The notes beneath the pieces are model-generated. The model ran no database searches. It was not told where the DNA came from and was given only the letters and a program-made list of their open reading frames with translations. From NCBI GenBank assembly GCA_964016885.1, contig OZ024742.1:241366001-241430000 (forward strand): a stretch of 64,000 bases of DNA. Direction: 5' to 3'. Positions 6,484 to 64,000 of the stretch are shown piece after piece (the stretch's first letter is position 1; each line of letters begins with the position of its first letter). This stretch comes from Eledone cirrhosa (lineage: Eukaryota). A program made the position numbers and the translations under genes.

Positions 6484-6615
6484 TAACGAAGGAAATGTGG
6501 TAAGGAACCAGGTGGACCATAACGCACCAAAGTACTCAATACTTGAGGTAGTAGAGTGGGTAATAGGAACCAGTAAGACCCCGACAGCTGAGCTCAAGCC
6601 GTTTCGACGGCTAAT
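6484..6615 (-). repeat. Dispersed pLTR-like repeat (family X)
   Basis: Homologous to 30905-31130 and 46482-46665; more distant relatives at ~44080-44175 and ~45199-45315. Confidence 0.7.
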
Positions 6616-6645
6616 TCGAACGTTCAACTATCTGGCAGATGGGTA

Positions 6646-6690
6646 AACGGTGCTGATGATAGCTAACAAGCTTGAAACTAGTACATCGTT
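6646..6690 (+). ncRNA. Type I hammerhead ribozyme (467-bp family)
   Basis: aacggtg-CTGATGA-t-agct-aaca-agct-t-GAAA-ctag-TA-catcgtt; stem I pairs, palindromic stem III, GUA site. Confidence 0.85.
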
Positions 6691-7111
6691 CCTGTGTCAG
6701 TGTTGAACAAAAAGGTGACGTGGTTGCCTTAACACCGTATGGCATAAATTCAGGCTGTTCAGTTTGTTTACAAACGAACAAAGCGACGTTAGCGCCGCTA
6801 AACTGATACGTGCATATATGTATGTGTACCTGTATGCATATGTATGTATATGTGTATATATATATATATATGTGCATGCTACTGTACGTCTGTATACATA
6901 TATGTATGTACGTATACATGCATACTTACATTTAAGTAAGTGCCATACTAAGAGTGAGAAATGAAATTTCGTTTTCATTTTGTTTCAATTTATCGTTTTC
7001 GGTATGCCTGACCGATTTAACTCACTCAATATGCAAATTAGGCTGCTCAGCCGTTAATTTTCATAAGGAAAGTATATACTTTCGAACGTTCAACTATCTG
7101 GCAGATGGGTA

Positions 7112-7156
7112 AACGGTGCTGATGATAGCTAACAAGCTTGAAACTAGTACATCGTT
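7112..7156 (+). ncRNA. Type I hammerhead ribozyme (467-bp family)
   Basis: Identical to 6646-6690. Confidence 0.85.
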
Positions 7157-7579
7157 CCTGTGTCAGTGTTGAACAAAAAGGTGACGTGGTTGCCTTAACA
7201 CCGTATGGCATAAATTCAGGCTGTTCAGTTTGTTTACAAACGAACAAAGCGACGTTAGCGCCGCTAAACTGATACGTGCATATATGTATGTGTACCTGTA
7301 TGCATATGTATGTATATGTGTATATATATATATATATATGTGCATGCTACTGTACGTCTGTATACATATATGTATGTACGTATACATGCATACTTACATT
7401 TAAGTAAGTGCCATACTAAGAGTGAGAAATGAAATTTCGTTTTCATTTTGTTTCAATTTATCGTTTTCGGTATGCCTGACCGATTTAACTCACTCAATAT
7501 GCAAATTAGGCTGCTCAGCCGTTAATTTTCATAAGGAAAGTATATACTTTCGAACGTTCAACTATCTGGCAGATGGGTA

Positions 7580-7624
7580 AACGGTGCTGATGATAGCTAA
7601 CAAGCTTGAAACTAGTACATCGTT
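7580..7624 (+). ncRNA. Type I hammerhead ribozyme (467-bp family)
   Basis: Identical to 6646-6690. Confidence 0.85.
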
Positions 7625-7921
7625 CCTGTGTCAGTGTTGAACAAAAAGGTGACGTGGTTGCCTTAACACCGTATGGCATAAATTCAGGCTGTTCAGTTTG
7701 TTTACAAACGAACAAAGCGACGTTAGCGCCGCTAAACTGATACGTGCATATATGTATGTGTACCTGTATGCATATGTATGTATATGTGTATATATATATA
7801 TATATATGCATGCTACTGTACGTCTGTATACATATATGTATGTACGTATACATGCATACTTACATTTAAGTAAGTGCCATACTAAGAGTGAGAAATGAAA
7901 TTTCGTTTTCATTTTGTTTCA

Positions 7922-7974
<53 letters not shown>

Positions 7975-29555: not shown

Positions 29556-29786
29556 TATATCAAAGTAATCAAAAATATGTAATGAAGAAATATGAAAAAT
29601 TAAAAACAAAAAACAAAAAAATTCAATATATACATAGTTACGATTGGATATAACACACACACAAACATACATAAAAAATACACACACAAACATACACGCA
29701 CACACATTAACATATATTCCTGTATGCTTGTTCGTGAGAACAAGGCCCATGGATCCATATATACATACATACATATATATATATTA

Positions 29787-30540
29787 AATTAATATATGAT
29801 AAACATTTACATGTTTTTGTTGCAATTGACAATAAATAGCTAGAATGAAATATCTTAATTCAAATACATATAGTCTGCCTGTACCGATCTAAAAAATAAT
29901 AAATCAATACTCACAAACATATACGGGCAAAAGGCCTTGGTGCCATTGAGTCTAAACTCTAAGTTATATTATATTACTGCTCCCTCAGTTGAGCTGAATT
30001 TGTAATCCCATATAAATGGCTGTTATTTCTAGCACTATGAGTGTGGGAGGCTAGAGGATTGGAATAAGTCGTGTGCAAAACCTCGTGTATTTTCGCTACG
30101 TTAACCAGACCTTAGATATTTTTCCGAGGTGAAGTTACTTAATTTGTCTGGGTACCTATTGATAAACACAGAAAATTAATTAACTCACTACTAATTAATT
30201 AATTATTTCACTATTATACCATCCTTTGTGAAACACGTTTAAGTTTTGAAGTTCGGACTGATCTGCGGAAAAAGTTTGTATTTTGAAATTTAAACGTGTC
30301 TAGGTACCAAAGCCTTTTGCCCGTATATGTTTGTGAGTATTGATTTATTATTTTTTAGATCGGTACAGGCAGGCTATATGTATTTGAATTAAGATATTTC
30401 ATTCTAGCTATTTATTGTCAATTGCAACAAAAACATGTAAATGTTTATCATATATTAATTTATACTGCTCAGAAGCGATTCTTAGAGGTAAAATAATTGT
30501 AAATGACCCCATTGAGTGTAAGCTCTAAGTTATATTACAT
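29787..30540. mobile_element. Element with 5' inverted arm and ~565-bp-spaced terminal direct repeat, in (TA)n
   Basis: 29787-29943 is the reverse complement of 30303-30461; CCATTGAGT.TAA.CTCTAAGTTATATT occurs at 29943 and 30508. Confidence 0.7.
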
Positions 30541-31130: not shown

Positions 31131-31191
<61 letters not shown>

Positions 31192-31197
<6 letters not shown>

Positions 31198-31743
31198 ATA
31201 CTTGGAGAGGGTCATATTGTAGTAATATTGCCAGAATTAATAACAGAACACATTCACTGTTTGGTTGGTTTTCGCTTCTGTATCTTTTATATCAGTTAAT
31301 TCATTCGGTCCTCAATGTTTACCATTGACTGACCAACGGTAAAAAATGACGATATAATATAGATATAAACACATATATATAGTCTAACAAAGTTCTTTCG
31401 TTGCATATTTGCAACATCGTCAGTGGTGCTATTACGTTCCTCCTGATGTATTGTGTTGACAAGATGTCGTTAATATACAATAAAACAGGAGGAACACAAT
31501 AGCACCACTGTCGATGTTGCAGATGTGCACCGAAAGAACTCTATTAGACTATATATATGTGTTTATATCTATATTATATCTGTATTTTTGACCGTTCGTC
31601 AGTCAATGGTAAACCTTGAGGACCGAATGAATTAACTGATATAAAAGATACAGAAACGAAAGCCAACCAGACAGTGAGTGTGTTCTGTTATTAATTCTGG
31701 CAATATTACTACAACAATATGATCCTCCCCAAGTATAACAATA
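31192..31743. repeat. Inverted dimer of family Y
   Basis: Arms 31192-31445 and 31486-31743 are diverged reverse complements. Confidence 0.85.
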
Positions 31744-31802
31744 TTTGTTTCGACTCACGATTTCATATCAAAAACCTCGCAAAACAAATATATATATATA
31801 TA

Positions 31803-32163
31803 TACGATATATTAACAAATGGAAACTATATTTATAAAACCATATTTATTTCATTATACATATTTCAGGGACACCAAGTCAAATTATGGTGCGCTTTCAT
31901 CAGATAAAATATAATATAGATCAGTTTTATAAATAAATATTGACATACCCTTAAAGAATGTGACCATTTTTGTTGGAAGCTCCCGGATTCCAACAGAAAT
32001 GGTCGCATTCTTTAAGGGTATGTCAATATTTATTTATAAAACTGCTCTATATTATATTTTATCTGATGAAAGCGCACCATAATTTGACTTGGTGTCCTTG
32101 AAATATGTATAATGAAATAAATATGGTTTCATAAATATAGTTTCCATTTGTTAATATATCGTA
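31803..32163. repeat. ~175-bp-arm fold-back
   Basis: 31803-31978 vs 31988-32163. Confidence 0.85.
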
Positions 32164-32379
32164 TTTTTACTCCAATAATTTGTTGAATGCTTTATATCAG
32201 TTATGAAAATATTTGCTTGTTGTATCCCAACAATTTAAATATAACTTCTACATATATATATAAATATATATTTATTTAGGTTAATTTGTTCACCACTGGA
32301 TAGAACTGGTCATTCCGTATGGTCAATCCCGATGTAATATTATGGAGAGTACTCAACGTAATGCAACTCACCCGTCTTC

Positions 32380-32685
32380 TTTTGTGTAGTTGGTGGTGCG
32401 AGTACGGAGTTAATTATTATAAAATAATAGGAGGCTGGACTGGTGTAAATCCTTGGAAGGTTTATTATGCTATAATCATTTCAATGACCGGGTTCAGTAT
32501 GAATCCGGTGATTTCATCAGGTATTCGAAATATAACAAAGGAATATAACAGATAAAATCCATGGGGCTGAAAATCAATGGAGCTGAAAATCAGAGACAAG
32601 AGGACGACCGACTATTTAGCAGCTTCTACCTCAGTCGGTCGCCCAAACCTTCCACGGATTTACACCAGTCCAGCCTCCTGTTATT

Positions 32686-32690
<5 letters not shown>
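32380..32690 (-). repeat. pLTR-like element with degenerate hammerhead (32468-32524) and inverted arm
   Basis: Minus: CTGATGA-aatcaccgg..ccggtcatt-GAAA-tgat-TA, but stem I does not pair. 32418-32463 is inverted at 32645-32690. Relative at ~44565-44650. Confidence 0.55.
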
Positions 32691-32751
<61 letters not shown>

Positions 32752-32986
32752 TTAGAAACACACAGATACATGCGGACACACACATATATATACATGAATG
32801 CATCCGCACCCAACTGTGAGTTAAGGGTGCCAACTTCACCGATGTTGCTCAATGAATGACCGGGACAGACCAATTCAGTTGAACTAGACTGAACCAGTAT
32901 CAGAGTTAAAAATACATTATGAAGAGAGAAGAAACATTTAGATATAATTAGTAATAAAATGTATCATACCTAAATTGCTCCTAAAT

Positions 32987-33076
32987 TCCTCGACTACGTA
33001 GTTTCGTGGCATAAACAAAAACAATATATCATAAAGACATAGAGTCCCTGCGAGGTCTGCCGACTTATCAAGAGGA
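32987..33076 (-). ncRNA. U3-A8 variant hammerhead, long stem II
   Basis: Reverse complement of 33540-33629. Confidence 0.75.
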
Positions 33077-33539
33077 TACCTCATTTTACTAGTCTCAAGA
33101 ACGCGTCTACACGACGTGAGAAAGAATCCCAAAAGGCGGAGGGGGAGATAGTCACGCGATATAACGGTCGAGAAACAGAGCTAAGCCTCCTATAACCACG
33201 AAGAAAATACCACGGATGCATTCATGTATATATATGTGTGTGTCCGCATGTATCTGTGTGTTTCTAAATATATTGTTAATAACTCCCTCTGGTCGAGCAA
33301 TCTTTGAAGTGTGGGGACAACTGGAAAGCTTCCATTACTCATACTTCTAGCCTTCTTCACCACCTCTTCTGCGGCCTCGATATGAATACCCCCTCCGCCT
33401 CCGTGGTATTTTCTTCGTGGTTATAGGAGGCTTAGCTCTGTTTCTCGACCGTTATATCGCGTGACTATCTCCCCCTCCGCCTTTTGGGATTCTTTCTCAC
33501 GTCGTGTAGACGCGTTCTTGAGACTAGTAAAATGAGGCA

Positions 33540-33629
33540 TCCTCTTGATAAGTCGGCAGACCTCGCAGGGACTCTATGTCTTTATGATATATTGTTTTTG
33601 TTTATGCCACGAAACTACGTAGTCGAGGA
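33540..33629 (+). ncRNA. U3-A8 variant type I hammerhead, long stem II
   Basis: tcctc-TTGATAA-gtcggca...tgccac-GAAA-ctacgtag-TC-gagga. Confidence 0.78.
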
Positions 33630-34136
33630 ATTTAGGAGCAATTTAGGTATGATACATTTTATTACTAATTATATCTAAATGTTTCTTCTCTCTTCATAAT
33701 GTATTTTTAACTCTGATACTGGTTCAGTCTAGTTCAACTGAATTGGTCTGTCCCGGTCATTCATTGAGCAACATCGGTGAAGTTGGCACCCTTAACTCAC
33801 AGTTGGGTGCGGATGCATTCATGTATATATATGTGTGTGTCCGCATGTATCTGTGTGTTTCTAAATATATTGTTAATAACTCCCTCTGGTCGAGCAATCT
33901 TTGAAGTGTGGGGACAACTGGAAAGCTTCCATTACTCATACTTCTAGCCTTCTTCACCACCTCTTCTGCGGCCTCGATATGAATACCCCCTCCGCCTCCG
34001 TGGTATTTTCTTCGTGGTTATAGGAGGCTTAGCTCTGTTTCTCGACCGTTATATCGCGTGACTATCTCCCCCTCCGCCTTTTGGGATTCTTTCTCACGTC
34101 GTGTAGACGCGTTCTTGAGACTAGTAAAATGAGGTA

Positions 34137-34226
34137 TCCTCTTGATAAGTCGGCAGACCTCGCAGGGACTCTATGTCTTTATGATATATTGTTTTTGTTT
34201 ATGCCACGAAACTACGTAGTCGAGGA
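34137..34226 (+). ncRNA. U3-A8 variant hammerhead, long stem II
   Basis: Same as 33540-33629, offset 597. Confidence 0.78.
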
Positions 34227-34292
34227 ATTTAGGAGCAATTTAGGTATGATACATTTTATTACTAATTATATCTAAATGTTTCTTCTCTCTTC

Positions 34293-34338
<46 letters not shown>

Positions 34339-34340
<2 letters not shown>

Positions 34341-34545
34341 TGTAAAAGGTAAACAGAAATAACAACACAATCGGTACAGTTTATGGAAGGAATATATTAG
34401 GTTAATGCTTGAAATAGCAGGAAGTGGGTCTTCACGTTTCGGACGCTTGTCCTTCATCAGAAGAATAAGGTAGATTGAAGGCGGGGTGGAATTGGAAGAA
34501 ATCTCTTTAGATAAAAATAACAGGTCCATTCATGTTGACATCTCT

Positions 34546-34546
<1 letters not shown>
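34339..34546 (-). mobile_element. Second copy of the ~215-bp hammerhead element (ribozyme 34429-34464)
   Basis: tctt-CTGATGA-aggacaagcgtcc-GAAA-cg-TG-aaga; G at the cleavage position, probably inactive. Confidence 0.75.
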
Positions 34547-34593
<47 letters not shown>

Positions 34594-34748
34594 TTGGAGC
34601 TCTGAAATAGCAATATATATATGGATGTATATATAATGTATTTTGCAATACACTTTATGCTTAATTAAAAGCATTTTGAAGACCGTAAGCTATTGTTTTA
34701 AAGTAGTGACAAATTCACTCACTTTGATCTCAGCAAACAGGGGAGATA

Positions 34749-34792
34749 AGCCGACATGACATGTTTCGCTTTTGTTGAAGCTTATCAAGGCC
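34749..34792 (-). ncRNA. U3-A8 variant hammerhead (316-bp family)
   Basis: Reverse complement of 35372-35415. Confidence 0.8.
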
Positions 34793-35055
34793 AACTACCC
34801 CGCCTGTCTACTGAGATCAATGATGTTATATTCTTATAGAAATCTAGTAAATAATCAGGAGCTGATTATGCAGAGCGGTTGTTGGTCAGGCAGAAATTAA
34901 AAATTAGAATTGGAGCTCTGAAATAGCAATATATATATGGATGTATATATAATGTATTTTGCAATACACTTTATGCTTAATAAAAGCATTTTGAAGGCCG
35001 TAAGATTTCTATAAGAATATAACATCATTGATCTCAGTAGACAGGCGGGGTAGTT

Positions 35056-35099
35056 GGCCTTGATAAGCTTCAACAAAAGCGAAAAATGTCATGTCGGCT
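35056..35099 (+). ncRNA. U3-A8 variant hammerhead (316-bp family, one stem III substitution)
   Basis: ggcc-TTGATAA-gctt-caacaa-aagc-GAAA-aatgtcatg-TC-ggct. Confidence 0.72.
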
Positions 35100-35371
35100 T
35101 ATCTCCCCTGTTTGCTGAGATCAAAGTGAGTGAATTTGTCACTACTTTAAAACAATAGCTTACGGTCTTCAAAATGCTTTTAATTAAGCATAAAGTGTAT
35201 TGCAAAATACATTATATATACATCCATATATATATTGCTATTTCAGAGCTCCAATTCTAATTTTTAATTTCTGCCTGACCAACAACCGCTCTGCATAATC
35301 AGCTCCTGATTATTTACTAGATTTCTATAAGAATATAACATCATTGATCTCAGTAGACAGGCGGGGTAGTT

Positions 35372-35415
35372 GGCCTTGATAAGCTTCAACAAAAGCGAAA
35401 CATGTCATGTCGGCT
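35372..35415 (+). ncRNA. U3-A8 variant type I hammerhead (316-bp family)
   Basis: ggcc-TTGATAA-gctt-caacaa-aagc-GAAA-catgtcatg-TC-ggct. Confidence 0.82.
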
Positions 35416-35540
35416 TATCTCCCCTGTTTGCTGAGATCAAAGTGAGTGAATTTGTCACTACTTTAAAACAATAGCTTACGGTCTTCAAAATGCTTTTAAT
35501 TAAGCATAAAGTGTATTGCAAAATACATTATATATACATC

Positions 35541-35572
<32 letters not shown>

Positions 35573-35664
35573 AGCATTTAAGCAAATAATTTAATGACAG
35601 CCTCGCCATCAATGGCCAAAATTATTTTTCATTATTTTTCTTTGTGAACCAATTACATAATTTG

Positions 35665-53100: not shown

Positions 53101-56100
53101 CCAAGCCACCAACAGAAATGAAACTCCAACCCACCAACAGAAATGGAACACCAAGCCACTAACAGAAATGGAACACCAAGTAACCAACAGAAATGGAACT
53201 CCAAGCCACTAACAGAAATGGAACTCCAAACCACCAACAGAAATGGAACTCCAAGCAACCAACAGAAATGGAAATCCAAGCCACCAACAGAAATGGAACT
53301 CCAAGCCACCAACAGAAATGGAACTCCAAGCCACTAACAGAAATGGAACTCCAAGCCACCAAAAGAAATGGAACGCCAAGCCACCAACAGAAATGGAACT
53401 CCAAGCCACCAACAGAAATGGAACTCCAAGCCACTAAAAGAAATGGAACTCCAAGTTACCAACAGAAATGGAACTCCAAGCCACCAACAGAAATGGAACT
53501 CCAAGCCACCAACAGAAATGGAACTCCAATCCACCAACAGAAATAGATCTCCAAGCCACCAACAGAAATAAAACTCCAAGCTAACAACAAAAATGGACCT
53601 TCAAGCCACCAACAGAAATGAAACTCCAAGCCACCAACAGAAATGGAACTCCAAGCCAATAACAGAAATGGAACTCCAAGCCACCAACAGAAATGGAACA
53701 CCAAGCCACCAACAGAAATGGAACTCCAAGCCACCAACAGAAATGGAACTCCAAACCACCAACAGAAATGTAACTCCAAGCCACCAACAGAAATGGAATT
53801 CCAAGCCATTAACAGAAATGGAACTCCAAGACACCAACAGAAATGGAACTCCAAGCCACCAACAGAAATGGAACTCCAAGCCACCAACAGAAATGGAACT
53901 CCAAGCCACCAACAGAAATGGAACTCCAAGCCACTAACAGAAATGGAATTCCAAGCGACTAAAAGAAATGGAACTCCAAGCCACTAACAGAAATGAAACT
54001 CCAACCCACCAACAGAAATGGAAAACCAAGCCACTAACAGAAATGGAACTCCAAGTAACCAACAGAAATGGAACTCCAAGCCACTAACAGAAATGGAACT
54101 CCAAGCCACCAACAGAAATGGAACTCCAAGCAACCAACAGAAATGGAAATCCAAGCCACCAACAGAAATGGAACTCCAAGCCACCAACAGAAATGGAACT
54201 CCAAGCCACTAACAGAAATGGAACTCCAAGCCACCAAAAGAAATGGAACGCCAAGCCACCAACAGAAATGGAACTCCAAGCCACCAACAGAAATGGAACT
54301 CCAAGCCACTAAAAGAAATGGAACTCCAAGTTACCAACAGAAATGGAACTCCAAGCCACCAACAGAAATGGAACTCCAAGCCACCAACAGAAATGGAACT
54401 CCAAGCCACCAACAGAAATGGAACTCCAAGCCACCAACAGAAATGGAACTCCAAGCTAACAACAAAAATGGACCTCCAAGCCACCAACAGAAATGAAACT
54501 CCAAGCCACCAACAGAAATGGAACTCCAAGCCAATAACAGAAATGGAACTCCAAGCCACCAACAGAAATGGAACTCCAAGCCACTAACATAAATGGAACA
54601 CCAAGCCACCAACAGAAATGGAACTCCAAGCCACTAACAGAAATGGAACTCGAAGCCACTAACAGAAATGGAAATCCAAGCCACCAACAGAAATGGAACT
54701 CCAAGCCACCAACAGAAATGGAACTCCAAGATAACAACAGAAATGGACCTCCAAGCCACCAACAGAAATGAAACTCCAAGCCACCAACAGAAATGGAACT
54801 CCAAGCCACCAACAGAAATAAAACTCCAAGCCAATAACAGAAATGGAACTCTAAGCCTCCTATAGAAATGGAACTGCAAGCCACTAACATAAATGGAACT
54901 CCAAGCCACTAACAGAAATGGAACTCCAAGCCACCAACAGAAATGGAACTCGAAGCCACCAACAGAAATGGAACTCCAAGCCACCAACAGAAATGGAACT
55001 CCAAACCACCAACAGAAATGGAACTCCAAGTCACTAACAGAAATGGAACACCAAGCCACCAACAGAAATGGAACACCAAGCCACCAACAGAAATGGAACT
55101 CCAAGCCACCAACAGAAATGGAACTCCAAACCACCAACAGAAATGTAACTCCAAGCCAATAACAGAAATGGAACTCCAAGCCACTAACAGAAATGGAACT
55201 CCAAGCGACTAAAAGAAATGGAACTCCAAGCCACCAACAGAAATGGAACACCAAGCCACTAACAGAAATGGAACTCCAAGTAACCAACAGAAATGGAAAT
55301 CCAAGCCACTAACAGAAATGGAACTCCAAGCCACCAACAGAAATGGAACTCCAAGCAACCAACAGAAATGGAACTCCAAGCCACCAACAGAAATGGAACT
55401 CCAAGCCACCAACAGAAATGGAACTCCAAGCCACCAACAGAAATGGAACTCCAAGCCACCAACAGAAATGGAACTCCAAGCCACCAACAGAAATGGAACT
55501 CCAAGCCACCAACAGAAATGGAACTCCAAGCCACCAACAGAAATAAAACTCCAAGCTAACAACAAAAATGGACCTTCAAACCACCAACAGAAATGAAACT
55601 CCCAGCCACCAACAGAAATGGAACTCCAAGCCAATAACAGAAATGGAACTCCAAGCCACCAACAGAAATGGAACACCAAGCCACCAACAGAAATGGAACT
55701 CCAAGCCACCAACAGAAATGGAACTCCAAACCACCAACAGAAATGTAACTCCAAGCCACCAACAGAAATGGAATTCCAAGCCATTAACAGAAATGGAACT
55801 CCAAGCCAGCAACAGAAATGGAACTCCAAGCCACCAATAGAAATGGAACTCCAAGCCACCAACAGAAATGGAACTCCAAGCCACCAACAGAAATGGAACT
55901 CCAAGCCACTAACAGAAATGGAATTCCAAGCGACTAAAAGAAATGGAACTCCAAGCCACCAACAGAAATGAAACTCCAACCCACCAACAGAAATGGAACA
56001 CCAAGCCACTAACAGAAATGGAACACCAAGTAACCAACAGAAATGGAACTCCAAGCCACTAACAGAAATGGAACTCCAAACCACCAACAGAAATGGAACT

Positions 56101-59100
56101 CCAAGCAACCAACAGAAATGGAAAACCAAGCCACTAACAGAAATGGAACTCCAAGTAACCAACAGAAATGGAACTCCAAGCCACTAACAGAAATGGAACT
56201 CCAAGCCACCAAAAGAAATGGAACGCCAAGCCACCAACAGAAATGGAACTCCAAGCCACCAACAGAAATGGAACTCCAAGCCACTAAAAGAAATGGAACT
56301 CCAAGTTACCAACAGAAATGGAACTCCAAGCCACCAACAGAAATGGAACTCCAAGCCACCAACAGAAATGGAACTCCAAGCCACCAACAGAAATGGAACT
56401 CCAAGCCACCAACAGAAATAAAACTCCAAGCTAACAACAAAAATGGACCTTCAAGCCACCAACAGAAATGAAACTCCAAGCCACCAACAGAAATGGAACT
56501 CCAAGCCAATAACAGAAATGGAACTCCAAGCCACCAACAGAAATGGAACACCAAGCCACCAACAGAAATGGAACTCCAAGCCACCAACAGAAATGGAACT
56601 CCAAACCACCAACATAAATGGAACTCCAAGCCACCAACAGAAATGGAACTCCAAGCCACTAAAAGAAATGGAACTCCATGTGACCAACAGAAATGGAACT
56701 CCAAGCCACCAACAGAAATGGAACTCCAAGCCACCAACAGAAATGGAACTCCAAGCCACCAACAGAAATGGAACTCCAAGCTAACAACAAAAATGGACCT
56801 CCAAGCCACCAACAGAAATGAAACTCCAAGCGACCAACAGAAATGGAAGTCCAAGCCAATAACAGAAATGGAACTCCAAGCCACCAACAGAAATGGAACT
56901 CCAAGCCACTAACATAAATGGAACACCAAGCCACCAACAGAAATGGAACTCCAAGCCACTAACAGAAATGGAACTTGAAGCCACTAACAGAAATGGAAAT
57001 CCAAGCCACCAACAGAAATGGAACTCCAAGCCACCAACAGAAATGGAACTCCAAGATAACAACAGAAATGGACCTCCAAGCCACCAACAGAAATGAAACT
57101 CCAAGCCACCAACAGAAATGGAACTCCAAGCCACCAACAGAAATAAAACTCCAAGCCAATAACAGAAATGGAACTCTAAGCCTCCTACAGAAATGGAACT
57201 GCAAGCCACTAACATAAATGGAACTCCAAGGCACTAACAGAAATGGAACTCCAAGCCACCAACAGAAATGGAACTCCAAGCCACCAACAGAAATGGAACT
57301 CCAAGCCACCAACAGAAATGGAACTCCAAACCACCAACAGAAATGGAACTCCAAACCACCAACAGAAATGGAACTCCAAGATAACAACAGAAATGGACCT
57401 CCAAGCCACCAACAGAAATGAAACTCCAAGCCACCAACAGAAATGGAACTCCAAACCACCAACAGAAATGGAACTCCAAGCCACTAACAGAAATGGAACA
57501 CCAAGCCACCAACAGAAATGGAACTCCAAGCCACCAACAGAAATGGAACTCCAAGCCACCAACAGAAATGGAACTCCAAACCACCAACAGAAATGGAACT
57601 CCAAGCCAATAACAGAAATGGAACTCCAAGCCACTAACAGAAATGGAACTCCAAGCGACTAAAAGAAATGGAACTCCAAGCCACCAACAGAAATGGAACA
57701 CCAAGCCACTAACAGAAATGGAACTCCAAGTAACCAACAGAAATGGAAATCCAAGCCACTAACAGAAATGGAACTCCAAGCCACCAACAGAAATGGAACT
57801 CCAAGCAACCAACAGAAATGGAACACCAAGCCACCAACAGAAATGGAACTCCAAGCCACCAACAGAAATGGAACTCCAAGCCACCAACAGAAATGGAACT
57901 CCAAGCCACCAACAGAAATGGAACTCCAAGCCACCAACAGAAATGGAACTCCAAGCCACCAACAGAAATGGAACTCCAAGCCACCAACAGAAATAAACCT
58001 CCAAGCTAACAACAAAAATGGACCTTCAAGCCACCAACAGAAATGAAACTCCAAGCCACCAACAGAAATGGAACTCCAAGCCAATAACAGAAATGGAACT
58101 CCAAGCCACCAACAGAAATGGAACACCAAGCCACCAATAGAAATGGAACTCCAAGCCACCAACAGAAATGGAACTCCAAACCACCAACAGAAATGTAACT
58201 CCAAGCCACCAACAGAAATGGAATTCCAAGCCATTAACAGAAATGGAACTCCAAGCCACCAACAGAAATGGAACTCCAAGCCACCAACAGAAATGGAACT
58301 CCAAGCCACCAACAGAAATGGAACTCCAAGCCACCAACAGAAATGGAACTCCAAGCCACTAACAGAAATGGAATTCCAAGCGACTAAAAGAAATGGAACT
58401 CCAAGCCACCAACAGAAATGGAACTCCAAGCTAACAACAAAAATGGACCTCCAAGCCACCAACAGAAATGAAACTCCAAGCCACCAACAGAAATGGAACT
58501 CCAAGCCACCAACAGAAATAAAACTCCAAGCCAATAACAGAAATGGAACTCTAAGCCTCCTACAGAAATGGAACTGCAAGCCACTAACATAAATGGAACA
58601 CCAAGCCACTAACAGAAATGGAACTCCAAGCCACCAACAGAAATGGAACTCCAAGCCACCAACAGAAATGGAACTCCAAGCCAGCAACAGAAATGGAACT
58701 CCAAACCACCAACAGAAATGTAACTCCAAGCCACTAACAGAAATGGAACACCAAGCCACCAACAGAAATGGAACACCAAGCCACCAACAGAAATGGAACT
58801 CCAAGCCACCAACAGAAATGGAACTCCAAACCACCAACAGAAATGTAACTCCAAGCCAATAACAGAAATGGAACTCCAAGCCACTAACAGAAATGGAACT
58901 CCAAGCGACTAAAAGAAATGGAACTCCAAGCCACCAACAGAAATGGAACACCAAGCCACTAACAGAAATGGAACTCCAAGTAACCAACAGAAATGGAAAT
59001 CCAAGCCACTAACAGAAATGGAACTCCAAGCCACCAACAGAAATGGAACTCCAAGCAACCAACAGAAATGGAACTCCAAGCCACCAACAGAAATGGAACT

Positions 59101-62100
59101 CCAAGCCACCAACAGAAATGGAACTCCAAGCCACCAACAGAAATGGAACTCCAAGCCACCAACAGAAATGGAACTCCAAGCCACCAACAGAAATGGAACT
59201 CCAAGCCACCAACAGAAATGGAACTCCAAGCCACCAACAGAAATAAAACTCCAAGCTAACAACAAAAATGGACCTTCAAGCCACCAACAGAAATGAAACT
59301 CCCAGCCACCAACAGAAATGGAACTCCAAGCCAATAACAGAAATGGAACTCCAAGCCACCAACAGAAATGGAACACCAAGCCACCAACAGAAATGGAACT
59401 CCAAGCCACCAACAGAAATGGAACTCCAAACCACCAACAGAAATGTAACTCCAAGCCACCAACAGAAATGGAATTCCAAGCCATTAACAGAAATGGAACT
59501 CCAAGCCACCAACAGAAATGGAACTCCAAGCCACCAACAGAAATGGAACTCCAAGCCACCAACAGAAATGGAACTCCAAGCCACCAACAGAAATGGAACT
59601 CCAAGCCACTAACAGAAATGGAATTCCAAGCGACTAAAAGAAATGGAACTCCAAGCCACCAACAGAAATGAAACTCCAACCCACCAACAGAAATGGAAAA
59701 CCAAGCCACTAACAGAAATGGAACTCCAAGTAACCAACAGAAATGGAACTCCAAGCCACTAACAGAAATGGAACTCCAAGCCACCAACAGAAATGGAACT
59801 CCAAACCACCAACAGAAATGTAACTCCAAGCCACCAACAGAAATGGACTTCCAAGCCATTAACAGAAATGGAACTCCAAGCCACCAACAGAAATGGAACT
59901 CCAAGCCACCAACAGAAATGGAACTCCAAGCCACCAACAGAAATGAAACTCCAACCCACCAACAGAAATGGAAAACCAAGCCACTAACAGAAATGGAACT
60001 CCAAGTAACCAACAGAAATGGAACTCCAAGCCACGAACAGAAATGGAACTCCAAGCCACCAACAGAAATGGAACTCCAAACCACCAACAGAAATGTAACT
60101 CCAAGCCACTAACAGAAATGGAATTCCAAGCGACTAAAAGAAATGGAACTCCAAGCCACCAACAGAAATGGAACTCCAAGCTAACAACAAAAATGGACCT
60201 CCAAGCCACCAACAGAAATGAAACTCCAAGCCACCAACAGAAATGGAACTCCAAGCCACCAACAGAAATAAAACTCCAAGCCAATAACAGAAATGGAACT
60301 CTAAGCCTCCTACAGAAATGGAACTGCAAGCCACTAACATAAATGGAACTCCAAGCCACTAACAGAAATGGAACTCCAAGCCACCAACAGAAATGGAACT
60401 CCAAGCCACCAACAGAAATGGAACTCCAAGCCACCAACAGAAATGGAACTCCAAACCACCAACAGAAATGTAACTCCAAGCCACTAACAGAAATGGAACA
60501 CCAAGCCACCAACAGAAATGGAACACCAAGCCACCAACAGAAATGGAACTCCAAGCCACCAACAGAAATGGAACTCCAAACCACCAACAGAATTGTAACT
60601 CCAAGCCAATAACAGAAATGGAACTCCAAGCCACTAACAGAAATGGAACTCCAAGCGACTAAAAGAAATGGAACTCTAGCCACCAACAGAAATGGAACAC
60701 CAAGCCACTAACAGAAATGGAACTCCAAGTAACCAACAGAAATGGAAATCCAAGCCACTAACAGAAATGGAACTCCAAGCCACCAACAGAAATGGAACTC
60801 CAAGCAACCAACAGAAATGGAACTCCAAGCCACCAACAGAAATGGAACTCCAAGCCACCAACAGAAATGGAACTCCAAGCCACCAACAGAAATGGAACTC
60901 CAAGCCACCAACAGAAATGGAACTCCAAGCCACCAACAGAAATGGAACTCCAAGCCACCAACAGAAATAAAACTCCAAGCTAACAACAAAAATGGACCTT
61001 CAAGCCACCAACAGAAATGAAACTCCCAGCCACCAACAGAAATGGAACTCCAAGCCAATAACAGAAATGGAACTCCAAGCCACCAACAGAAATGGAACAC
61101 CAAGCCACCAACAGAAATGGAACTCCAAGCCACCAACAGAAATGGAACTCCAAACCACCAACAGAAATGTAACTCCAAGCCACCAACAGAAATGGAATTC
61201 CAAGCCATTAACAGAAATGGAACTCCAAGCCACCAACAGAAATGGAACTCCAAGCCACCAACAGAAATGGAATTCCAAGCCATTAACAGAAATGGAACTC
61301 CAAGCAACCAACAGAAATGGAACTCCAAGCCACCAACAGAAATGGAACTCCAAGCCACCAACAGAAATGAAACTCCAACCCACCAACAGAAATGTAACTC
61401 CAAGCCACCAACAGAAATGGAATTCCAAGCCATTAACAGAAATGGAACTCCAAGCCACCAACAGAAATGGAACTCCAAGCCACCAACAGAAATGGAACTC
61501 CAAGCCACCAACAGAAATGGAACTCCAAGCCACCAACAGAAATGGAACTCCAAGCCACCAACAGAAATGGAACTCCAAGCCACCAACAGAAATAAAACTC
61601 CAAGCTAACAACAAAAATGGACCTTCAAGCCACCAACAGAAATGAAACTCCCAGCCACCAACAGAAATGGAACTCCAAGCCAATAACAGAAATGGAACTC
61701 CAAGCCACCATCAGAAATGGAACACCAAGCCACCAACAGAAATGGAACTCCAAGCCACCAACAGAAATGGAACTCCAAACCACCAACAGAAATGTAACTC
61801 CAAGCCACCAACAGAAATGGAATTCCAAGCCATTAACAGAAATGGAACTCCAAGCCACCAACAGAAATGGAACTCCAAGCCACCAACAGAAATGGAACTC
61901 CAAGCCACCAACAGAAATGGAACTCCAAGCCACCAACAGAAATGGAACTCCAAGCCACTAACAGAAATGGAATTCCAAGCGACTAAAAGAAATGGAACTC
62001 CAAGCCACCAACAGAAATGAAACTCCAACCCACCAACAGAAATGGAAAACCAAGCCACTAACAGAAATGGAACTCCAAGTAACCAACAGAAATGGAACTC

Positions 62101-64000
62101 CAAGCCACTAACAGAAATGGAACTCCAAGCCACCAACAGAAATGGAACTCCAAACCACCAACAGAAATGTAACTCCAAGCCACCAACAGAAATGGAATTC
62201 CAAGCCATTAACAGAAATGGAACTCCAAGCCACCAACAGAAATGGAACTCCAAGCCACCAACAGAAATGGAACTCCAAGCCACCAACAGAAATGAAACTC
62301 CAACCCACCAACAGAAATGGAAAACCAAGCCACTAACAGAAATGGAACTCCAAGTAACCAACAGAAATGGAACTCCAAGCCACTAACAGAAATGGAACTC
62401 CAAGCCACCAACAGAAATGGAACTCCAAACCACCAACAGAAATGTAACTCCAAGCCACTAACAGAAATGGAATTCCAAGCGACTAAAAGAAATGGAACTC
62501 CAAGCCACCAACAGAAATGGAACTCCAAGCTAACAACAAAAATGGACCTCCAAGCCACCAACAGAAATGAAACTCCAAGCCACCAACAGAAATGGAACTC
62601 CAAGCCACCAACAGAAATAAAACTCCAAGCCAATAACAGAAATGGAACTCTAAGCCTCCTACAGAAATGGAACTGCAAGCCACTAACATAAATGGAACTC
62701 CAAGCCACTAACAGAAATGGAACTCCAAGCCACCAACAGAAATGGAACTCCAAGCCACCAACAGAAATGGAACTCCAAGCCACCAACAGAAATGGAACTC
62801 CAAACCACCAACAGAAATGTAACTCCAAGCCACTAACAGAAATGGAACACCAAGCCACCAACAGAAATGGAACACCAAGCCACCAACAGAAATGGAACTC
62901 CAAGCCACCAACAGAAATGGAACTCCAAACCACCAACAGAAATGTAACTCCAAGCCAATAACAGAAATGGAACTCCAAGCCACTAACAGAAATGGAACTC
63001 CAAGCGACTAAAAGAAATGGAACTCCAAGCCACCAACAGAAATGGAACACCAAGCCACTAACAGAAATGGAACTCCAAGTAACCAACAGAAATGGAAATC
63101 CAAGCCACTAACAGAAATGGAACTCCAAGCCACCAACAGAAATGGAACTCCAAGCAACCAACAGAAATGGAACTCCAAGCCACCAACAGAAATGGAACTC
63201 CAAGCCACCAACAGAAATGGAACTCCAAGCCACCAACAGAAATGGAACTCCAAGCCACCAACAGAAATGGAACTCCAAGCCACCAACAGAAATGGAACTC
63301 CAAGCCACCAACAGAAATGGAACTCCAAGCCACCAACAGAAATAAAACTCCAAGCTAACAACAAAAATGGACCTTCAAGCCACCAACAGAAATGAAACTC
63401 CCAGCCACCAACAGAAATGGAACTCCAAGCCAATAACAGAAATGGAAATCCAAGCCACCAACAGAAATGGAACACCAAACCACCAACAGAAATGGAACTC
63501 CAAGCCACCAACAGAAATGGAACTCCAAGCCACCAACAGAAATGGAACTCCAAGCCACCAACAGAAATGGAACTCCAAGCCACCAACAGAAATGGAACTC
63601 CAAGCCACCAACAGAAATAAAACTCCAAGCTAACAACAAAAATGGACCTTCAAGCCACCAACAGAAATGAAACTCCCAGCCACCAACAGAAATGGAACTC
63701 CAAGCCAATAACAGAAATGGAACTCCAAACCACCAACAGAAATGGAACACCAAGCCACCAACAGAAATGGAACTCCAAGCCACCAACAGAAATGGAACTC
63801 CAAACCACCAACAGAAATGTAACTCCAAGCCACCAACAGAAATGGAATTCCAAGCCATTAACAGAAATGGAACTCCAAGCCACCAACAGAAATGGAACTC
63901 CAAGCCACCAACAGAAATGGAATTCCAAGCCATTAACAGAAATGGAACTCCAAGCCACCAACAGAAATGGAACTCCAAGCCACCAACAGAAATGGAACTC
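50172..64000. repeat. 25-bp satellite CCACCAACAGAAATGGAACTCCAAG, running off the window end
   Basis: About 550 monomers with variant-defined multi-monomer blocks. Confidence 0.98.

Follow-up and report, generated by a model that had tools for sequence, protein, structure and literature searches.

A 597-bp tandem repeat with Penelope-type insertion ends and a long-stem-II hammerhead motif with a predicted pseudoknot

Animal non-LTR retrozymes are described as non-coding tandem units that carry one type I hammerhead each, occur in thousands of copies and reside in genomes in which Penelope-like elements (PLEs) are present (PMC7229834; bioRxiv 10.64898/2026.07.22.740005). PLEs in turn bear minimal hammerheads in their pLTRs, including the U3-A8 hammerheads of Schistosoma, of which about 1,300 were found via a PLE; these are reported as type I motifs with a palindromic stem III, a longer-than-usual stem II, U3-A8 covariation and close copies on the opposite strand, and their helix II is reported to have 6-8 bp and no recognized tertiary contact (PMC4209133). 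Natural U3-A8 cores are known and are reported to be active in vitro (PMC3088659). A further group of hammerheads, human C10orf118 among them, is described as stabilized by a predicted pseudoknot of 5-6 bp joining stems I and II (PMC3088659; crystal structure, PMC11300833). Insertions of endonuclease-bearing, Neptune-type PLEs consist of partial tandems with an inverted, 5'-truncated copy, a tail at one end only and (TA)n targets (PMC8557442, PMC3846280, PMC11167929). This structure has been explained by two internal priming sites, and a PLE reconstituted in vitro is reported to insert without need for cleavage (PMC11167929). What the hammerheads do in PLEs and animal retrozymes is regarded as an open question (PMC8557442, PMC11167929).

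We analyzed a window of 64,000 nucleotides from the 3.0-Gb genome of Eledone cirrhosa, in which a 597-bp repeat shares features with each of these four systems and departs from each. It differs from the animal retrozymes in its 59-nt stem II, its predicted pseudoknot, its U3-A8 core and the 10-nt palindrome of its stem III, and a comparison with pLTRs revealed no homology. Compared with the PLE hammerheads, its stem II is long (~19 bp), with an internal loop that forms the predicted pseudoknot, and the element has no ORF. The pseudoknot-stabilized hammerheads differ in the pairing partners: here, within a repeat family, the 5' flank of an open stem I is unpaired and is matched by a strand of an internal loop in a long stem II. 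The crystallized example is described as relying on a short loop II together with helix IV, an additional stem-loop (PMC11300833). The tail, at ~167-174 nt, exceeds the 30-40 bp reported for Neptune-type insertions, and the element is non-coding. We found no description of a long-stem-II internal-loop pseudoknot in retrozymes in the literature covered, mostly non-subscription papers, nor in passages of PMC6962438, PMC8490949 and PMC6155905; the supplements of PMC4209133 (one file), PMC3088659 (Dataset S1) and the retrozyme papers could hold such motifs. The element class and the U3-A8 swap are already known; the ribozyme architecture and the natural C3-G8/U3-A8 series described below are new. 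We regard it as probable that the locus is an inverted-plus-tandem copy of the 597-bp repeat with Penelope-type ends, likely a non-autonomous retrozyme copied by PLE enzymes, with a hammerhead predicted to be active via a pseudoknot that joins the long stem II to the sequence flanking stem I.

The insertion and its hammerhead motif

The locus is a single insertion between (TA)n runs (left flank 32687..32751, right flank 34296..34338), composed of two arms, one inverted and one direct, of 472 and 1,089 nt, respectively. The inverted arm (32745..33216, minus strand) is 5'-truncated and abuts (TA)n with its 3' end, at unit position ~247 past the cleavage site (fixed end 2), while the direct arm (33213..34301, plus strand) comprises 1.8 tandem units with a period of 597 and abuts (TA)n at unit position 76-80 (fixed end 1). 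Open reading frames across the element reach at most 110 aa.

The type I hammerhead motif TCCTC-TTGATAA-59 nt-GAAA-CTACGTAG-TC-GAGGA is letter-identical at 33540-33629 (+), 34137-34226 (+) and 33076-32987 (-), just as the original prediction of a hammerhead with a U3-A8 core had held; the 46-nt insert, the 10-nt palindrome ACTACGTAGT, C17 at 33624 and the period of 597 agree as well. Copy 1 (33533..33629, +) begins with the 5' strand of the pseudoknot (33533-38, with a private T>C at 33538), followed by stem I (33540-44 with 33625-29), U3 at 33545, A8 at 33550, stem II (33552-33610, enclosing the 3' strand of the pseudoknot at 33560-65), GAAA (33611-14) and the palindromic stem III (33614-23), and the predicted cut falls after C17. 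Copy 2 spans 34130..34226 (+), with pseudoknot strands at 34130-35 and 34157-62, U3 at 34142 and C17 at 34221; copy 3 lies within the inverted arm at 32987..33083 (-), with U3 at 33071.

The core thus reads UUGAUAA, GAAA and GUC, a hammerhead core in which U3-A8 is a compensated variant. G10.1-C11.1 and A15.1-U16.1 are constant in 40/40 family copies, a constancy partly fixed by the search patterns. A hammerhead scan of 185 kb of shuffled loci gave 0 matches, a 15-mer of the ribozyme has 6,344 exact matches in the genome compared with 3 for its reversed control, and the stem II insert folds at -18.0 kcal/mol versus -9.6 +/- 2.4 in shuffles, only 1 in 1000 of which matched it. Together, these data indicate that the motif is not a product of chance. 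For stem III, RNAfold gives no stable monomer fold, and a duplex between two copies is predicted at -12.9 kcal/mol; a 3-bp stem with a tetraloop is possible in the monomer.

A search of Rfam over 31700-35600 returned no match to the 597-bp motif at E values up to 10, and the hammerhead of the neighboring 316-bp family matched HH9 at 30.4 bits, below the cut-off of 52. Because the Rfam models lack a long stem II, the missing match says nothing about the fold. Over the whole window, the Rfam matches listed were low-scoring, mostly of microRNA type and on simple repeats. As the architecture escapes both short-stem-II descriptors and Rfam, the number of hammerheads in genomes of this kind is likely underestimated.

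Stem II and its predicted pseudoknot

The insert had been read as holding several small hairpins, and the fold rules this out: the 59-nt stem II folds as one interrupted hairpin, to which the insert contributes 7-8 bp, a 2x2 loop, 6 bp and a 5-nt loop, with pair probabilities of at least 0.96. The suggestion that the insert provides tertiary contacts fared better and can now be made specific, since the 5' strand of internal loop 1 (ACCUCR) complements UGAGGU, located one base upstream of stem I, in a predicted 6-bp pseudoknot. The outer pair of this pseudoknot is U-A in subfamily B (~82% identical, with at least 199 matches), U-G in subfamily A and C-G in two A copies; across 40 family copies it is U-A in 24, U-G in 12 and C-G in 2. 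With the pseudoknot included, the covariation score of the structure in these 40 copies was reached by 0/500 shuffles, which ignore kinship, and the nested structure without it did not score above shuffles within the family. Changes in the distal hairpin of the 597-bp family are one-sided only, almost all between A-U and G-U.

Canonical-core hammerheads with a long stem II were also found in flanking DNA, and a pattern search for them gave 8,195 matches compared with 64 for the control. From the C3-G8 long-stem-II pattern we sampled the first 30 loci and 20 picked for diversity, kept motifs whose stem I had at least 3 bp and whose stem II folded below -9 kcal/mol (43 motifs, reduced to 29), and joined one A copy and one B copy to them, for a total of 31 hammerheads. 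In 26/31, at least 4.5 positions pair in the same register window with differing sequences (for example AAAGA/UCUUU, GAGUU/AACUC and GGAAA/UUUCC among the relatives). Mean pairing was 5.42, compared with 3.92 when partners were swapped (0/5000 reached the observed value) and 3.73 when flanks were shuffled (0/2000), both controls ignoring kinship. Covariation of stems I to III, which a true hammerhead was expected to display, is present as U-A, U-G and C-G in stem I within the family and, in 50 C3-G8 relatives, as changes on both sides in 16/18 pairs, including 4/4 pseudoknot pairs. The 50-row alignment was model-fitted to the nested stems, with the pseudoknot columns outside the model; pairing in these columns stands at 78%, owing to a one-position change of register from group to group. 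The same pairing, in other sequences, recurs across the long-stem-II C3-G8 superfamily. Thus, a covarying pseudoknot is predicted to join the long stem II to the 5' flank of stem I.

Copies, ends and mode of spread

We mapped ~60 subfamily A loci, drawn from the first listed or best-scoring matches. The 3' ends of their arms (n=99) fell into two groups, 46 at 76-81 nt and 44 at 244-254 nt past the cleavage site, with 9 elsewhere, four of which are alignment splits. Within the window, internal copies of the two termini lie at 33700..33704 (+; end 1, a putative priming site of reverse transcription) and at 33868..33878 (+; end 2, ~167-174 nt past end 1, the counterpart of a PLE-type tail). Excluding one duplicate and one edge-cut locus, 30/35 two-armed loci combine both termini, one on each arm, and the insertions are flanked by (TA)n. 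Two fixed ends, one per side, match the PLE structure described in PMC8557442 and PMC11167929 and support copying by PLE enzymes; the PLE-type two-ended insertion is seen here directly for a retrozyme family, and gives genomic support to PLE enzymes copying retrozymes in trans via internal priming. The partial tandem, the inverted 5'-truncated copy, the one-ended tail and the (TA)n target are those of a non-autonomous PLE derivative, and the arrangement as non-coding tandem repeats, each bearing a type I hammerhead, is that of an animal retrozyme. The 597-bp unit is therefore likely a PLE-type mobile element, an identity absent from the original reading, and reads as a non-autonomous animal retrozyme.

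In the mechanism that we propose, the tandem units would be transcribed and would fold with a 5-bp stem I, a proximal stem II of 6 bp plus a bulged C, and UGAGGU/ACCUCR paired as the 6-bp pseudoknot. The pseudoknot would stand in for loop-loop tertiary contacts, with the distal hairpin closing off the internal loop in which its 3' strand is displayed. Stem III could form as 3 bp with a tetraloop in the monomer or as a 10-bp duplex between two tandem copies, and U3-A8 would take the place of the C3-G8 pair. Cleavage after GUC and subsequent religation would yield a 597-nt circle. A PLE reverse transcriptase/GIY-YIG protein would then nick (TA)n, prime at two AU-rich sites inside the unit, with a different site for each strand, and read through the cleavage site on the circle or on an uncut multimer.

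Consistent with such a template, 82/91 arms cross the cleavage site and 31/91 cross it twice, which requires that the template be circular or uncut. The 5' ends do not pile up at the site: eight real ones are found 4-20 nt past it and none exactly at it. The same observations would be made if this mobile element carried a slow or silent hammerhead, kept as a structural or protein-assisted element, and were copied from uncut multimeric RNA. Reports on other hammerheads lend this account some weight: an anole PLE hammerhead cut only with protein present and its core mutants inserted anyway (PMC11167929), minimal PLE hammerheads cleave weakly (PMC4209133), and no cleavage was reported for 8/9 Xenopus retrozymes (bioRxiv 10.64898/2026.07.22.740005); in addition, one PLE family of this genome has GCAA instead of GAAA. 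We nevertheless judge it unlikely. Between subfamilies A and B, the core is constant (0/12 positions changed), family C, a relative described below, keeps U3 in 15/15 and A8 in 14/15 recognized cores while N7 varies, and pseudoknots of this kind have been linked to fast cleavage in other hammerheads (PMC3088659). Across the ribozyme frame, 3/56 positions differ between A and B, all of them preserving pairing, versus 74/437 elsewhere, a conservation inflated by the retrieval of loci with exact ribozyme patterns. We continue to favor a hammerhead that would be active, in a retrozyme likely copied by PLE enzymes.

Several further features of the family were observed. A hairpin at 33785-33810 of the window (unit ~161-185) falls where points of 5' truncation and inversion are clustered (13/91 at 159-197), which could be either a reverse-transcriptase stall or a transcription start. 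Subfamily B copies L150, L154, L159, L166 and L168 have a TC-rich end 2, TTTCTCTCT, joined to (CT)n and not (TA)n, which suggests priming via complementarity between RNA and target. Inherited changes in subfamily A, read on the RNA strand, comprise 29 A>G and 15 T>C, versus 4 and 10 after insertion (Fisher p 0.028); the A>G excess could reflect A-to-I editing or selection for A-U/G-U pairs. An ADAR imprint was rejected, as what is seen in subfamily A is replicated neither in B nor in the 316-bp family or the PLE, and is also absent from the fixed A/B differences. In runs X4 and X6 the unit was covered at a depth of ~8 on single contigs, and these were not counted toward the family in other species.

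The U3-A8 core and the relatives of the 597-bp unit

The double change in the core had been called rare, which proved wrong: U3-A8 hammerheads are published (PMC3088659, PMC4209133), and this genome holds at least 19,793 U3-A8 matches to a general PLE-type pattern, compared with 11 C3-G8 matches. PLEs are abundant, with 10,596 GIY-YIG candidates. One of them, L091, encodes RT and GIY-YIG in a 938-aa frame with a Neptune-type CX4CxxC linker and an interrupted 5' part, and its U3-A8 hammerhead has 11,747 matches; the named closest relatives of the PLE protein are mostly from molluscan or mollusc-symbiont assemblies. In a quick endonuclease tree of 48 rows, four PLE families grouped with an SH-aLRT of 100, and the four families of this clade all have U3-A8 and the stem III ACCGGU. 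The L094 and L101 PLE families have C3-G8. Among 128 PLE-like loci of other organisms, many of them from one assembly, the sense strand held 22 C3-G8, 12 U3-A8 and 5 U3-G8 motifs and the antisense strand none. Hence the swap is recurrent. When contigs of metagenomes and genomes were scanned with a single protein, there were no matches; scans with an alignment gave some.

The 597-bp unit was said to be independent of the adjacent 316-bp family (1,075 genome matches), and we found no similarity between the two (z = 0.0). Its body, with the ribozyme excluded, matched the C3-G8 retrozyme families L419, L429, L408 and L414 at z 4.5-11.9, the best of 40 targets, with maxima of 7.6 for A and 11.9 for B; by comparison, the highest values were 4.7 for the 316-bp unit and 4.5 for the L109 pLTR, each seen in a single case, and 2.3 for the L091 pLTR. 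A third U3-A8 family, family C, has 157 exact matches. Its stem II measures 51-53 nt and its palindrome 12 nt, GUC and the pseudoknot are shared, and it shows homology to L419 as well as to the 597-bp unit, the latter with z up to 16.6. Other searches did not recover the relationship. An nhmmer profile from 9 C3-G8 bodies (~185 nt) missed the 597-bp unit, a C3-G8 covariance model scored it at 22-23 bits, no higher than a short-stem hammerhead and unreported at E 0.001 with default filters, and a search for a C3-G8 sister of its ribozyme gave 1 match compared with 2 in the control. In trees, family C stands beside the C3-G8 families L419 and L429, and A/B are on a long branch; the trees point weakly to a place for the 597-bp unit inside the C3-G8 long-stem-II superfamily. 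The trees neither establish nor reject a single U3-A8 origin inside the superfamily (p-AU 0.33-0.36).

As far as sequence comparison can tell, the 597-bp unit likely belongs to this superfamily. Given its distant homology to C3-G8 retrozyme families, a separate origin of its U3-A8 is most likely, by a C3-G8 to U3-A8 switch inside the superfamily, apart from the PLE clade and the 316-bp family. Of the two origins first offered for the shared core, a lineage of U3-A8 ribozymes thus applies to the four families of the PLE clade, and convergence most likely applies to the 597-bp unit. A derivation of the unit from the pLTR of the U3-A8 PLE clade (L091-like), with a common origin with the 316-bp family, would account for the U3-A8 in all four families of that clade, and the L091 family does have ends at +78-82 and +143-150, the second resembling end 2 of subfamily A. 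We nonetheless consider this derivation very improbable, as the 597-bp unit, the 316-bp unit and the L091 pLTR are mutually dissimilar (pairwise z 0.0, -0.6 and -0.4), the body matches C3-G8 retrozymes far above the L091 pLTR, and the end motif is lost in subfamily B. Scarcely credible, and the weakest account of all, is that the unit is a satellite spread at the DNA level whose ribozyme likeness is a relic: an array of ~20 tandem units with a short inverted start exists on contig C2 (G000:C2:334192000-334204400), but the copies are dispersed between (TA)n runs, are inverted and truncated to varying extents at the 5' end, and stop at fixed 3' positions, an end structure that largely refutes it, divergence is 0.34% within a locus versus 3.0% between loci, and the pair-keeping changes point to selection on RNA.

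The search for an autonomous homologue of the unit was negative (L091 pLTR, z = -0.6), and pLTR homology was absent among 50 GIY-YIG loci (of the 10,596 candidates) and the L091 and L109 pLTRs. L091, ruled out as sequence donor by its z values, is kept only as a candidate partner; an end motif is shared between the L101-type PLE and some C3-G8 families. A wider proposal, to which we give a little under an even chance, is that at least 14,000 retrozyme hammerheads of this genome form an undescribed superfamily, in which stem II is long and pairs through an internal loop with the 5' flank as a pseudoknot, and stem III is an extended palindrome. Such ribozymes would cleave efficiently, escape Rfam, switch between C3-G8 and U3-A8 on one scaffold and be copied from RNA circles by PLE enzymes that prime at two sites 100-170 nt apart. 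The natural series on this scaffold, with C3-G8 in L419/L429, U3-A8 in family C and the 597-bp family, and a covarying pseudoknot, allows the effects of the core swap and of the tertiary contact on cleavage to be measured.

Other hammerheads and repeats were noted along the way. On the WLWD contigs (L322-L346), PLE hammerheads that are close relatives of one another are found together with C3-G8, U3-G8 and U3-A8 cores, which suggests a wobble intermediate. A PLE pLTR hammerhead with GCAA for GAAA and U3-A8 was found at L107:5890-5930 and in L041, L054, L057, L059, L097 and L103, and the combination is present in 11/11 motifs listed for the L107-related PLE family; it is either a natural core variant or a dead ribozyme. 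Near position 3138 of L034 (-) lies a short U3-A8 hammerhead whose stem III is an 8-nt palindrome. The 316-bp family has the same inverted-plus-tandem layout at window 34587-35551, with two ends ~26 nt apart and a U3-A8 hammerhead with a short stem II, for which a flank/loop II pairing of 3-4 bp appears possible by eye. More C3-G8 hammerhead repeats or candidates are located at window 31802-32164, 46749-46818, 6615-7927 (an array with a period of 468), 45621-45683 and 46158-46212, with a stem II of 14-30 nt where measured. Tail-out inverted repeats beside (TA)n, negative in hammerhead scans, at 31190-31744, 29785-30462 and 32415-32693 are probably truncated PLE-type insertions. The window also contains two satellites, one of 25 bp in 553 copies (50181-64000) and one of 17 bp in 336 copies (20676-26399).
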